Part shown: positions 54,182-59,143 of the stretch, piece by piece | Layout of the letters: the number at the start of each line of letters is the position of its first letter | How positions within the stretch are numbered: position 1 is the stretch's first letter | Assembly: GCA_000989515.1 (NCBI GenBank) | Contig: LBOM01000005.1 | Span: 2,709-66,708 of the forward strand | Origin: Candidatus Nomurabacteria bacterium GW2011_GWE1_32_28 | GTDB taxonomy: Bacteria > Patescibacteriota > Minisyncoccia > Phycocordibacterales > UBA9973 | Direction: 5' to 3' | DNA: 64,000 nucleotides | Translations under genes and position numbers: made by a program | The notes under the pieces: model-generated | The model's database searches: none | What the model saw: only the letters and a program-made list of their open reading frames with translations | What the model was told of the DNA's origin: nothing

Positions 54182-55082
54182 TAAATACTTTATAGAAATA
54201 GAAAAAAGATGTCCACACTTTCCCCATTGGGGCTTAGGTTGACATCTTTTTTCGTTTAATATATACTCTTTCAATCAGTATGATTACATTAAGAAACAAG
54301 TTTAAAAGGCGGTTTTAAGCAGACTTTCTTTTGTCTGTTGACCGCTTAAAAAGCGGTTTTTTATTTGGTAAGTATGGCTTGAAAATTGACAACTTAAATC
54401 CTATCCTAGTATTCTTGGACAACTTGCAAAAGTGTGTCCGGCATGCAGCCTGTATGCTTAGGGTCTTTTCAAAGCTAGAGATAGGAAATTGTTTAAATAA
54501 TTTTGAATGCCGAGCGGTCGGACTAGATTTTATTATAAGCATTGTTTTATCCTTATGTAATGTAAGGATTGTGATTTATAAATTTCTTAACAGGAAATTT
54601 AAGGGCGTATGGTGGATGCCTTGACTTTAAGAGGCGATGAAGGACGTGGCGTTGCTGCGATAAGCTTCGGGGAGGTGCTTAGCTACCTTTGATCCGGAGA
54701 TTTCCGAATGGGGAAACCCTATCAAGTAAACCTTGATAACTTTTATCTTTATGATAAAAGAGCATACCCTGGGAAGTGAAACATCTCAGTACCAGGAGGA
54801 ATAGAGACAAATATGTATTTCCTTAGTAGCGGCGAGCGAAAAGGAAGAAGCCCAAACCGTTCTCGCAAGAGGGCGGGGTTGTAAGATGACAATGTAGTTT
54901 ACTAGGAGAGTTAAAAAATAAATTATTAGTTGAAGTTGCTGGAAAGCGACACCGTAGGGGGTGATAGTCCCGTAAACGAAAATAATTTATCTCTTTTATT
55001 GTTATTCTTGAGTACCCCAGGACATGAATGGCCGGGGGGAATCTAGCGGAACTAACCGCTAAGGCTAAATACTCTTAAAGAT

Positions 55083-55119
<37 letters not shown>

Positions 55120-56332
55120 CAGCCCGATTAGGGCGGTGAAATAGACCTGAAACCATATGTCTACAAGGAGTCGGAGCAGGTATTTATATCTGCAACGGCG
55201 TGCCTATTGAAGAATGAGCCAACGAGTTTATTCATACTGCAAGGCTAAGCTGGCTAAAACAGCAGAGCCGAAGGGAAACCGAGTGTTAATAGCGCGAATG
55301 AGTAGTATGCATAAGACCCGAAGCCAGGTGAGCTTGCCATGAGCAGGTTGAAGTTTGTCGAAAGACAAATGGAGGACCGAACCGGTAGATCGTACAACGT
55401 CTTCGGATGACTTGTGGTAAGGAGTGAAAAGCTAATCGAACCTGGTAATAGCTGGTTCTCTCCGAAATAGCTTTAGGGCTAGCGTCACTGGAAGGTTTCG
55501 ACAGGGAGCAATCTCGCGAAACCTATCAAACTCCGAATACCAGAAACCATAGCTTGGCAGTTAGGCCATGGGGGCGAAGCTCCATTGGCCAAAAGGGAAA
55601 CAGCCCAGATCTCAAAATAAGGTCCCTAAATTTATGCTAAGTGTAAGATAAGAAGGTGGAATTTCTCTGACAATGAGGAGGTTGGCTTAGAAGCAGCCAT
55701 CCTTTAAAGATAGCGTAACAGCTCACTCATCTAGAGATTTTGCGTCGACATAGTACCGAATTTGAGGATTTCGTTTTTCTTCGGAAGAACGGAGTGGTAG
55801 GAGAGTGTTCCAATCTGCTGTGAAGTAGGACTCGTGAGAGCCTATGGAGCGTTTGGAAGTAAGAATGTTGGCACAAGTAACCGCAATGAGGGTGAGATCC
55901 CCTCACGTCGAAAGATCAAGGTTTCCTTGGTAATGTCAATCAGCCAAGGGTTAGTCGGGCCTAAGGGAATGGAGAAATCCGTACTCGATGGACATAGGGT
56001 TAATATTCCCTGACTTCTGTATTTTGTGATGGGACGACGGAGTGTAGTATGTATTGCTCATTATTGGATTTGAAGTTTGTTTACTAAAGATGAGGTGTAG
56101 GAAAATCCGCACACTGCTTTCAATGGCAAATCTAAGGTAAATGAAAAGTCTTAAGCCTCGGTTTAGGACAATAATACAAAGCACGCTTCCAAGAAAAATC
56201 TCTAAACTTAAAAATATAGAATCCGTACCGCAAACCGACACAGGTGATCAGGTCGAGTAGACCAAGACGAACGAGTGAGTGGTCCCCAAGGAACTCGGCA
56301 AAAAAGCAGCCGTAACTTCGGGATAAGGCTTG

Positions 56333-56486
56333 CCCCCACCACTTTGGATATTTCTAAATATTTGAGAGTGTTGGGAGAGTAAGATTTAAGTATCGAGCAA
56401 AAAGAGACAATGAGGAATTAAATTAAAGCTCTTCATCATTTTTTATTTCACAGAATTTTTTTGTGAAGTATCTAAAGTGGTGGGGG
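56333..56486 (+). other. AT-rich expansion / intervening-sequence-like insertion in the helix-63 region of the 23S
   Basis: A closing stem CCCCCACCACTTT / AAAGTGGTGGGGG encloses about 128 nt of AT-rich sequence, where E. coli has a much shorter helix. Confidence 0.6.
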
Positions 56487-56640
56487 CCGCAGCGAAAGTT
56501 TCTCTGGCAACTGTTTACCAAAAACACAGCTCCCTGCGAACTCGTAAGAGGATGTATAGGGGGTGACACCTGACCAATGCCAGAAGGTCAAATATCGGCG
56601 GTGTATGTCGCAAGATGTATGCAGACTGATATAAGCCCTG

Positions 56641-56683
<43 letters not shown>

Positions 56684-57301
56684 ACCTTGTCGGGTAAGTT
56701 CCGACGCGCACGAATGGTGTAATGACTGGAGAACTGTCTCGGGGACCAGCTCGGTGAAAATACAATGCCGGTGAAGATGCCGGCTAAGTGCAGTTAGACG
56801 AAAAGACCCTAGAAGCTTTACTATAACTTGATATTGAGCATGTTTTTAAACTGCGTAGAATAGATGGGAGAGGTTTGAAGTGTACGGTTTCGGCTGTATT
56901 CTACTCGTCAGTGAAATACCATTCTTTTTGAAGGCATGTTCTAACCAATACGGCAAAAACGTATTGAGACAGTATCTGGTGGATAGTTTTACTGGGGCTG
57001 TACCCTCCTAAAAAGTAAAGGAGGGGTTTAAAGGTTAGCTAGGCGCGAATGGAAACCGTGCCGATAGTGTAATGGCACAAGCTAGCTTGACTGTAAGAGG
57101 TACATCTCAAGCAGGTGGGAAACCAGAACATAGTGATCCGACCATACGCATTAGACGCGGTGGAAGCTCAACGGATAAAAGCTACTCTAGGGATAACAGG
57201 CTAGTTCCGCCTAAGAGTTCATATCGACGGCGGAGTTCGGCACCTCGATGTCGGCTCACCTTAGCGCGGCGGTGGAGAAGCTGCCAAGCGTTTCAGACCG
57301 T

Positions 57302-57643
57302 TCTTCAGTCAATTATTAAATTGACTTCAGAACAGTCTGGATCCTCAGAGGAATAGTGAACGAAAGTGAACTACTGTTTTAATCGAAATTAACCATATTG
57401 CTGTTTGCAATATCACGGCGGTCGCGTTAAATTTATATTAACAAATCACGCGATGAAGTCGGGGTTTTCGGTGGAATCCTATCACATTTATGTGAGGACA
57501 ATACCGAGAAGAAAATTTATTTTTTCTTTGTAGAGACTACAAACCGACCCCCTTAAATTGGGGAATGTATAGTCCAATCCCATAAGTAATTATGGAAATT
57601 GCTAAAGCCTAAGGCCTAATGCCTAAAGCCTAGCATGTAGATG
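57302..57643 (+). mobile_element. ORF-less group-I-like intron at the position equivalent to E. coli 23S U2593 (boundaries provisional)
   Basis: The 3' flank resumes exactly at CGTGAGACAG. The 5' flank ends in U and the insert ends in G. A core can be drawn: GTCGG/CCGAC, TTCGGTG/TACCGAG, GACTAC/GTATAGTC, CCCC/GGGG, and an S-like AATGTATAGTCC at 57564-57575. Confidence 0.55.
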
Positions 57644-57706
57644 CGTGAGACAGGTTGGTCTCCTATCTACTGCACTCGTTGATTCTTGAGAAGATTTGCT
57701 CCTAGT

Positions 57707-58526
57707 AGGCCCGGAAGGGCTTTGCTACTTCACGAAGAAATTTGTGATGAAAAAGTGGCTAATAACGGTGAAGTCTTCATTGATGTTTCTGATTTGAGAA
57801 AAATAATATCATTCGATCCTTGATATTATGATTCGCTTGAGGACCAGAAATATGATAAGATAATACCGTGGGAAGTCGATTTAAAATTATGAAAGAAATT
57901 GAGAAAGCTTATATTGCTGGTTTTCTTGATGGAGATGGTAGTCTAATGCTTCAAATTAAAAAAAGAAGTGATAGTAAACGAGGAATTCGTTTTATGACAA
58001 CCATTTGTTTCTATCAAGACACTAGACATGAAAAGACTTTATATTGGATGAAAAAGATTTTAGGTATTGGTTATATTTCCAGAAGAAATGATGGAATGAC
58101 TGAACTTAGAATAAATGGATATGTGCAGATTGCAAAAATTCTTAAAGATTTATTGCCTTTTGTAAAATTCAAAAAAATACAAGCTAATATTTTATACAAA
58201 GCTTGTAATCTTTTATCTAAAACAAAGTTTAGTAATCTCTCGGAAAAACAATTAATTAAGCTCGTTGATTTAATTTTAGTTATTCAAGGTGAAAACTATG
58301 TTACTAAAAAGAAAAAAACCAAAAATGAATTGTTTAAAATTTTAAATTTGACCCCGTAACGACTTGTTTCCGACTTTATGTCGGAACGGACTTACATAAC
58401 ACTGGAAAGTTCTAATATATTTAATATATGAGAACAGGTTTATGTTTGTAATACGCCAACGCCTTAACTTTAATTAAAGAAAGGCGAAGATATAGTCTGC
58501 ACTCCTAGAAATAGGGGAGATATGTG
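57707..58526 (+). mobile_element. Group I intron inserted inside the sarcin-ricin loop of the 23S, carrying a LAGLIDADG homing-endonuclease gene
   Basis: GCTCCTAGT|...|ACGAGAGGACCGGAGTG. The 5' exon ends in U and the insert ends in G. The conserved J8/7-P7 element AAGATATAGTC lies at 58487-58497. Confidence 0.8.
57889..58359 (+). CDS. LAGLIDADG homing endonuclease (single-motif, I-CreI-like)
   Basis: MKEIEKAYIAGFLDGDGSLMLQIKK..., 156 aa from the ATG at 57889, located inside the intron. Confidence 0.9.
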   Translation: MKEIEKAYIAGFLDGDGSLMLQIKKRSDSKRGIRFMTTICFYQDTRHEKTLYWMKKILGIGYISRRNDGMTELRINGYVQIAKILKDLLPFVKFKKIQANILYKACNLLSKTKFSNLSEKQLIKLVDLILVIQGENYVTKKKKTKNELFKILNLTP

Positions 58527-58793
58527 ACGAGAGGACCGGAGTGAACTGACCTCTGGTGTACGAGCTCTATTGCCAAATGGACTGCTCGGTAGCTATGTCG
58601 GGATTGGATAACCTCTGAAAGCATCTAAGAGGGAAGCCAGCTTCAAGATTAGGAATCGTTAAGAACCGTGAGAGATGATCACGTTGATAGGCTTTAAGTG
58701 TAAGCGAGAAGTACTAATGTTTCGATTCCTGTTAAGAAATTTGTAAATCACAATTAAAAAAATAAAAAAATTCATATTAATATTCATTATTAT

Positions 58794-58902
<109 letters not shown>

Positions 58903-59036
58903 ATAGTAATGAATTTTTTTATTTAAATTTGTCGCAGGATGCCCCGTCTTACAGGCACAGTACACCTTTTGGATTTTTTCATTCACGTTGTTCTGAAAAA
59001 TTCTCAAAAGCTCTTGCACTTGGGTCCCAAACCAAA

Positions 59037-59119
<83 letters not shown>

Positions 59120-59143
59120 CACTGAGTATTTGATTCTTTTAAA

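Follow-up and report, generated by a model that had tools for sequence, protein, structure and literature searches.

In a survey of 348 23S rRNA genes from CPR bacteria, Tsurumaki et al. (2024, J Bacteriol, PMC11270868) described 14 frequent insertion sites, with LAGLIDADG_1 reading frames predominating at positions 1917, 1931, 1952, 2593, 2604 and 2657 (23IS6-8 and 23IS12-14) and with group I introns at 23IS9-11, 23IS13 and 23IS14 that were previously unreported in other bacteria. According to the same study, CPR genomes usually possess one rRNA operon and, as cited there from Brown et al., CPR rRNA insertions are removed from the transcripts. The enzyme I-ShaI, which is encoded at 23IS7 in Ca. 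Shapirobacteria and is 42% identical to I-CeuI, was reported to cut the DNA of its own insertion site and to dimerise. For 23IS14, the paper presents neither a structure nor splice boundaries nor an enzyme test. A literature search on 'L2656' or 'position 2656/2657' returned nothing relevant beyond this work, and a survey of archaeal group I introns (Nawrocki 2018) gives the sites 2593, 2500, 1931 and 1923, with no site in the sarcin-ricin loop.

A further point of comparison is provided by the chloroplast 23S introns with I-CreI, I-MsoI and I-CvuI, which are single-motif, homodimeric LAGLIDADG enzymes. We take these to be the enzymes of introns at position 2593, and the introns at this position presumably belong to subgroup IA3. 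For the archaeal 2593 introns, the basis of the IA3 assignment is the survey by Nawrocki (2018).

The locus described here lies in a 64-kb stretch of DNA, the whole of which was analysed and is referred to as the window; all features are located on its forward strand. An 820-nt insert (57707-58526) separates the 5' flank GCTCCTAGT, which extends up to 57706, from the 3' flank ACGAGAGGACC, which starts at 58527 (longer flanks: ...TTTGCTCCTAGT and ACGAGAGGACCGGAGTG, respectively). It sits inside the sarcin-ricin loop (SRL; helix 95) of the 23S rRNA gene, adjoining the bulged G2655. Positions were assigned by global alignment with the annotated E. coli 23S gene (L001:928-3832, 2905 nt, index +1 here), renumbered such that the first A of GAGA corresponds to A2660, which is the ricin site in the established numbering. 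In this alignment, positions 57693-57706 equal E. coli 2643-2656 and the sequence from 58527 onward equals 2657 onward, with the end of the 5' exon (57698-57706) comprising E. coli 2648-2656 and the start of the 3' exon spanning 58527-58543. From the sequence alone, the boundary is ambiguous by one base (2656 or 2657), because the intron and the 3' exon both begin with A; it was set at U2656|A2657, the only choice in which the exon ends in U and the intron in G. The first-pass annotation had described the conserved loop sequence as broken between 57706 and 58527 by 820 nt, with the insertion after E. coli U2656, an upstream exon ending in U and an insert ending in G. Flanks and length were re-read identically, the global alignment agrees with the placement, and both U57706 and G58526 were observed.

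We conclude, with a probability of roughly 0.9, that the segment 57707-58526 represents a mobile IA-type group I intron, which is inserted between U2656 and A2657 of a patescibacterial 23S rRNA gene and carries a LAGLIDADG gene in its loop L6. It shares with 23IS14 ('position 2657' in PMC11270868) the gene, the site, the host group, a group-I-like insert and a single-domain LAGLIDADG_1 reading frame; the one-base gap between 2657 and 2656/2657 corresponds to the A/A alignment ambiguity, and nothing of substance sets the two apart. The window intron is one more instance and a typical member of this published class, the existence and frequency of the site being already known. In the first-pass annotation, the site was not counted among the standard ones, which is correct for the classical sites in the historical sense but no longer applies now that the position has been catalogued as 23IS14 and is frequent in CPR bacteria. 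The information added beyond Tsurumaki et al. (2024) is modest and consists of the boundaries U2656|A2657, the IA-type core and an L6 reading frame bounded by a GTG in the core and a TAA in J6/7.

Relatives were collected by searching one genome per species for G followed by ACGAGAGGACCGGAGTG, a pattern that catches inserts at this site ending in G and was chosen because the uninterrupted sequence universally reads U followed by ACGAGAGGACC. The pattern was present in 62 genome contigs. In 49 of them, an insert of 286-1040 nt that is homologous to the window intron lies directly between GCTCCTAGT and ACGAGAGG; of the remaining contigs, about seven were cut by the contig end and five were unrelated chance matches. 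Given a homologous insert at the same site in 49 other contigs, the interruption is not due to chance. Almost all of these carriers are labelled Patescibacteria (Nomurabacteria, Paceibacterota, Zambryskibacteria, Saccharibacteria and others), and a few bear the labels Chloroflexia, Anaerolineaceae, Pseudomonadales or Proteobacteria, which are record labels only. The nearest match to the 23S exons was found in a Ca. Nomurabacteria MAG (L060; 93.7% identity), and the window intron is about 80% identical to the introns of L060 and L005. Judged by its sequence, the host is a member of the Patescibacteria (CPR) related to Nomurabacteria.

The group I identity of the insert was assessed with Rfam and with a family-specific profile. 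The Rfam model Intron_gpI (RF00028, gathering score 50 bits) remained without a match in a scan of the whole window and, up to E = 1, in a scan of 5.2 kb. When a 1.3-kb segment was scanned, the 3' part of the insert (58415-58518) was detected with 27.3 bits (E 1.2e-4, threshold 50), in an alignment that places P8, GAAGAUAUAGUCU and P9 correctly; taken by itself, this sub-threshold match is suggestive only. In the window intron, the match to the model is split by the reading frame. At the same site, the ORF-less relative L054 was recognised above the threshold (51.4 bits, E 2.8e-10), with P1, P2, P3, P4-P6, P8 and P9 assigned and a 47-nt insert between P7 and P3', and the other six ORF-less relatives reached 44 (L003), 41.5 (L029), 31.1 (L009), 30.7 (L061), 30.1 (L012) and 26.1 bits (L020). 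In all seven, the match coincides exactly with the insert. The comparison with Intron_gpI that the first-pass annotation had proposed yielded only 27.3 bits for the window itself, but a score above threshold for its same-site relative L054. A profile HMM was then built from the seven ORF-less members, leaving out the window. Searched against the 64-kb window, it matched two segments and nothing else: 57720-57883 (E 5.4e-31) and 58338-58527 (E 9.1e-22). The gap between them falls in loop L6. Since the two halves flank L6, the window intron is the same RNA as its ORF-less relatives with a gene inserted in this loop. The assignment of the window insert to group I rests on these same-site homologues and on the covariation described below, and the original call of a group I intron stands on the same grounds.

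A full group I core is present, spanning P1 to P9 and including the P3/P7 pseudoknot. P1 is formed by the internal guide sequence TTGCTA (57722-57727), which pairs with the last four bases of the 5' exon (TAGT; UAGU in the RNA) and the intron bases AG, with U57706 standing opposite G57724; this splice-site U·G is T-G in 48 of 48 family members. The guide is preceded by a P1 extension hairpin (57709-57720, GCCC GGAA GGGC) that is limited to the sub-lineage of the window, and followed by the P2 hairpin with its GNRA loop (57730-57747, TCACGAA GAAA TTTGTGA). The 5' strand of P3 (GTGGC, 57755-57759) and its partner GCCAA (58455-58459) form four canonical pairs and an outermost G·A mismatch. The alignment of the family places the 5' strand of P4 (CGGTG), J4/5 (AA) and the 5' strand of P5 (GTCTT) at 57766-57777, and the 3' strand of P5 (AAGAT), J5/4 (AA) and the 3' strand of P4 (TACCG) at 57857-57868. 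Between them, a branched stem-loop (57778-57856) extends P5 at the periphery; its structure is taken from an MFE fold only, and it contains a conserved loop of the CGGTCC/CGATCC type and a conserved CTTGAGGACCAGAAA strand. P6 consists of GGG AA GTCG (57870-57878), which doubles as codons 1-4 of the reading frame, and TGAC CCC (58349-58355), which doubles as its last codons (Leu-Thr-Pro). Then follow, again by family alignment, J6/7 (GTAAC, with the stop codon) and the 5' strand of P7 (GACT) at 58356-58364. The 3' strand of P3 continues into the P8 hairpin (CGCCTT ... AAGGCG, 58460-58486), both together covering 58455-58486. J8/7 and the 3' strand of P7 (AAGATAT AGTC) occupy 58487-58497; this is the conserved 'S' element of group I introns, and AAGATATAGTC was found exactly where the conserved core element had been marked at the outset. 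The P9 hairpin with its GNRA loop (58502-58517, CTCCTA GAAA TAGGGG) precedes the terminal (omega) G at G58526, which is informative for the window only, as the terminal G of the relatives was imposed by the search pattern. For P10, no convincing candidate pairing of the window intron with the 3' exon was found.

Two hairpins between P7 and P3' (58368-58386 and 58394-58445, together 58368-58445) occupy the place of P7.1 and P7.2. Introns of subgroup IA carry extra helices, P7.1 and P7.2, in this interval. On the basis of these P7.1/P7.2-like hairpins, the window intron is classified as IA type and may be IA3-like. Strings of the core also resemble those of the chloroplast 2593 introns (CGGTG...AATACCG.GGGAAG, GTA.AGACT and A.G.TATAGTC), which also belong to group I and lie in the 3' part of the 23S gene. 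Several helices of an earlier, hand-drawn core were rejected once the relatives had been aligned: P7 was moved from CGGACT at 58388 to 58361-58364, P6 from the hairpin 58368-58386 to 57870-57878/58349-58355, and P5 was corrected from GTCTTCA/TGAGGAC to GTCTT/AAGAT.

For the covariation count, the variable loops were removed from 48 distinct members, the remainder was aligned, and pairs were scored for the structure drawn on the window sequence. Canonical pairs made up 95.8% of the cells in P1-P9, compared to 36-41% when the 3' partner was shifted by 1-2 columns. Several compensatory pair types each were observed in P2, P3, P5, P6, P8 and P9, including three to five canonical types for every one of the six inner P2 positions, whereas P4 and P7 did not vary across the 48 sequences and are uninformative in this respect. 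The first pair of P5 is G·U in 31 sequences and A·C in 17, an alternation that is a signature of conserved wobble geometry.

The reading frame in loop L6 extends from 57868 to 58359, with the stop codon TAA at 58357-58359, and encodes 163 aa when started from GTG 57868 or 156 aa when started from ATG 57889. It contains the motif IAGFLDGDGS, with a single motif per chain, and matches Pfam LAGLIDADG_1 in one stretch (43.1 bits, cut-off 23.1; E 8.7e-11). The best matches among proteins of solved structure are I-CvuI (E 1e-15), I-MsoI (E 1e-13) and I-CreI (E 1e-11), all of them full-length and, like the window protein, single-motif enzymes. The motif Asp is kept, as are the Q and K at the positions of I-CreI Q47 and K98, and an H takes the place of R51. 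Identity to the chloroplast enzymes is nevertheless low (E 1e-11 to 1e-15), and the site differs (2656 instead of 2593), which implies another DNA target. Like I-ShaI, the protein is a putative single-domain LAGLIDADG_1 enzyme encoded in a group-I-like insert of a CPR 23S gene; it differs from I-ShaI, whose cleavage activity is known, in site (23IS14 versus 23IS7) and in enzyme branch.

Intact orthologous reading frames of 158-163 codons were found in 24 cases, in which GFLDGDGS is invariant. In these relatives, the frame is open from the GTG in ACC-GTG-GGA-AGT-CG, at the end of P4 and the start of P6, to the TAA in TTG-ACC-CCG-TAA-CGACT, at the end of P6 and in J6/7, and most of them lack an ATG ahead of the LAGLIDADG helix. 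The start codon of the family was therefore placed at the core GTG (57868 in the window), the ATG at 57889 being particular to the window sequence. Accordingly, the single-motif LAGLIDADG protein that had been annotated is borne out by Pfam, but its length of 156 aa gives way to the family length of 163 aa. The differences between the window and L016 frames are distributed over the three codon positions as 26/22/56, with 44 synonymous and 35 non-synonymous codons, and this third-position bias across the reading frame indicates that the gene has been under purifying selection. In other members, the frame is frameshifted or truncated (L002, L008, L010, L015, L030 and L044) or deleted, and same-site introns free of any reading frame occur in L003, L009, L012, L020, L029, L033 and L054. 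Such a mix of intact, decayed and absent reading frames is what the gain-decay-loss cycle of homing endonuclease genes would be expected to produce.

The LAGLIDADG protein could alternatively act, mainly or additionally, as a maturase in the folding or splicing of the intron and not, or not only, as a homing nuclease. LAGLIDADG maturases are established for organellar group I introns. The purifying selection on the reading frame in 24 genomes would also suit such a role, and the possibility is mentioned by Tsurumaki et al. (2024, PMC11270868). We consider it improbable, because same-site introns with no reading frame or a decayed one persist in many genomes at an essential site, which implies that splicing and the persistence of the RNA are independent of the protein, and because the catalytic Asp and other active-site positions are kept. 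Far less probable still, to the point of being barely credible, is that the insert represents an intervening sequence that RNase III cuts out with no joining of the ends, such that the 23S rRNA remains fragmented. Elements of this kind occur in bacterial 23S genes, probably also at other sites in CPR bacteria, but the insert contains a complete group I core with covariation and no simple long stem, and a break within the 12-nt SRL would be expected to destroy the loop. In addition, Tsurumaki et al. (2024, PMC11270868) tie such elements to 23IS2 and 23IS4, which are distinct from the group I sites located at the gene's 3' end (23IS6-14).

The state of the host gene has to be weighed along with the self-splicing homing intron favoured here. 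A scan of the whole window with Rfam identified a bacterial LSU rRNA at 54589-57407 (1948 bits) and a 5S rRNA at 58796-58901. The same 23S gene contains a second, ORF-less group I intron (57302-57643), located at U2593|C2594, 63 nt upstream of the SRL intron; its guide sequence GCGGTC (57418-57423) pairs with the exon sequence GACCGT, and it has blocks of 91-96% identity in common with its L060 counterpart at the same site. Just upstream of this 2593 intron, the window reads GCCAAGCGTT|TCAGACCGT, which is 37 bases fewer than in L002, L060 and L026. The 37 nt that are present in these three relatives and absent at 57292/57293 (TGGCTGTTCGCCAATTAAAAAGGTACGCGAGCTGGGT) correspond to E. coli ~2548-2584. 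They comprise helix 92 including the A loop, together with the 3' strand of helix 90 and two residues of the peptidyl-transferase centre, G2582 and G2583. It is due to this gap that the Rfam LSU match ends at 57407. Three pieces within 57398-57466 (TTGCTGTTTGCAA, ATTAACAAATCACGCGA and TCGGGGTT) were considered as remnants of helices 92/90, in the sense of a diverged exon interrupted by short insertions. Two findings speak against this: the 5' strand of helix 90 is unchanged, and the pieces are unable to pair with it; and when set beside L060 and L026, they prove to belong to the 2593 intron, as a peripheral hairpin (57393-57411) and as its P2 and P3. As written, the 23S rRNA of the window should not work, and the gap reflects either an error in the sequence or assembly or a gene copy that is dead.

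That the insert is a selfish element, itself structurally intact, whose surrounding gene is dead or whose surrounding sequence is faulty appears unlikely, though less so than the maturase role. In favour of it, the missing piece contains two conserved motifs, which 16 of 17 and 17 of 17 relatives retain, respectively; a DNA search found no copy of the piece elsewhere in the 64-kb window, and a degenerate second 5S copy lies downstream. Among 21 matches to the deletion junction (CCAAGCGTTTCAGACCGT) in a metagenome collection, all were unrelated and protein-coding, with none in an rRNA context, so that they favour neither reading. On the other side, the rest of the 23S gene is highly conserved (1948 bits), and both introns and the reading frame are intact; a single 37-nt deletion also looks like a local sequence or assembly error. 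CPR genomes, moreover, usually have only one rRNA operon (Tsurumaki et al. 2024, PMC11270868). If the host gene were dead, splicing of the SRL intron at this locus might be of no consequence, while the identity of the insert would be unaffected. A more speculative scenario, which we regard as quite doubtful, is that the loss is real and that a decaying 23S copy serves as a reservoir in which two homing-type introns, structurally intact and one of them with an undamaged endonuclease gene, outlive their host gene, and that the start and stop codons in P6 and J6/7 make translation and folding exclusive by design.

In the proposed mechanism of the mobile SRL intron, guanosine-initiated self-splicing would remove the intron from the pre-rRNA and ligate the exons, restoring AGUACGAGAGGACC, such that the ligated junction would read CUCCUAGU-ACGAGAGG. 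Removal is expected because an 820-nt insert left in the loop would abolish the contact with EF-G and EF-Tu. General support for splicing and cleavage comes, by analogy, from the reported absence of CPR rRNA insertions from transcripts and from I-ShaI at another site (Tsurumaki et al. 2024). The encoded protein, acting as a homodimer, would cut intron-less SRL DNA within a stretch of about 22 bp around GCTCCTAGT|ACGAGAGGACC, whose central GTAC is palindromic, and repair of the cut would copy the intron into the target (homing). Read as an inverted repeat, the 11 bp on either side of the insertion point agree in 5 of 11 positions, and this partial repeat with its GTAC centre would fit a homodimeric enzyme; we reasonably infer that the enzyme may recognise the SRL DNA. 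Since the ends of the reading frame form part of the P6 helix, its translation and the folding of the ribozyme would be mutually exclusive on one RNA molecule.

Few known RNA sequences are as conserved or as critical to function as the SRL. A mobile element residing there depends on exact removal, and the target of its nuclease has to be DNA that shows hardly any variation among bacteria. The window adds an example and anatomical detail to this picture, not a new phenomenon, as the site has already been published for CPR bacteria (PMC11270868). With at least 24 intact orthologues, the enzymes of the SRL site are candidates for a natural meganuclease family with a near-universal bacterial target, and the introns at this site may offer a clean system in which to study the ordering of rRNA folding, intron splicing and intron-encoded translation.

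The open reading frame of the LAGLIDADG endonuclease, carried by the group I intron that interrupts the sarcin-ricin loop (SRL) of the 23S rRNA gene between U2656 and A2657 (window positions 57707-58526), is composed of ribozyme core sequence at both of its ends (57868-57878 and 58349-58359). Its conserved GTG start codon is formed by the final base of P4 and the beginning of P6, and its last three codons, together with the stop codon, make up the 3' strand of P6 and J6/7. The same arrangement was found in all 24 intact orthologues, i.e. the SRL-site endonuclease reading frames of 158-163 codons.

Two further elements of the ribozyme were compared among 48 family members, defined as distinct aligned sequences with an intron at the same site. 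In the P9 hairpin (58502-58517), the 5' arm, CTCCTAG, echoes the end of the 5' exon, GCTCCTAG (57698-57705). This repeat is exact in 27 members, or in 35 when A/G is permitted at one position; in the remaining members, covariation carries the hairpin away from the sequence of the exon, so it is the hairpin that is conserved. Only two combinations occur at the first pair of P5 (57773/57861), which adjoins J4/5: G·U, in 31 members, and A·C, in 17, an alternation characteristic of a conserved wobble geometry.

The 23S gene contains a further group I intron without an open reading frame (57302-57643), located at E. coli U2593|C2594, the I-CreI site. Its 5' exon ends in ...TCAGACCGT at 57301, its terminal G lies at 57643 and its guide sequence, GCGGTC, at 57418-57423. 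The intron was not detected by Rfam (score of just 12.7 bits) and is homologous to introns at the same place in L026 and in L060, the Ca. Nomurabacteria locus with the closest 23S exon match. At 57292/57293, a 37-nt stretch of universally conserved exon sequence, TGGCTGTTCGCCAATTAAAAAGGTACGCGAGCTGGGT, is absent from the gene; it corresponds to E. coli positions ~2548-2584 and comprises helix 92 with the A loop, the 3' strand of helix 90 and G2582/G2583. The absent piece, which has GTT at each end, is retained in the relatives L002, L060 and L026, and does not occur elsewhere in the 64 kb. The gap is due either to an error in the sequence or to this copy of the gene being dead. Elsewhere in the gene (56329-56507), there are ~110 bases more than in E. 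coli between positions 1703 and 1769. An additional 5S-like copy (59019-59121; 37.2 bits against a threshold of 38), located 118 nt downstream of the real 5S gene (58796-58901), has a core identical to that of the latter, but in helices I and II its 5' strands are replaced; it looks like a tandem duplicate that has degenerated.

A distinct intron subtype (CGAGGGAAGA...), whose reading frame starts with ATG and is out of frame with the core, occupies the same SRL site in L038, L043, L051 and L055, on contigs titled Chloroflexia, Anaerolineaceae, Pseudomonadales and Proteobacteria. The same RNA subtype was found in L054, on a Paceibacterota contig. If the binning of the former four contigs is right, the SRL site is in use beyond Patescibacteria.
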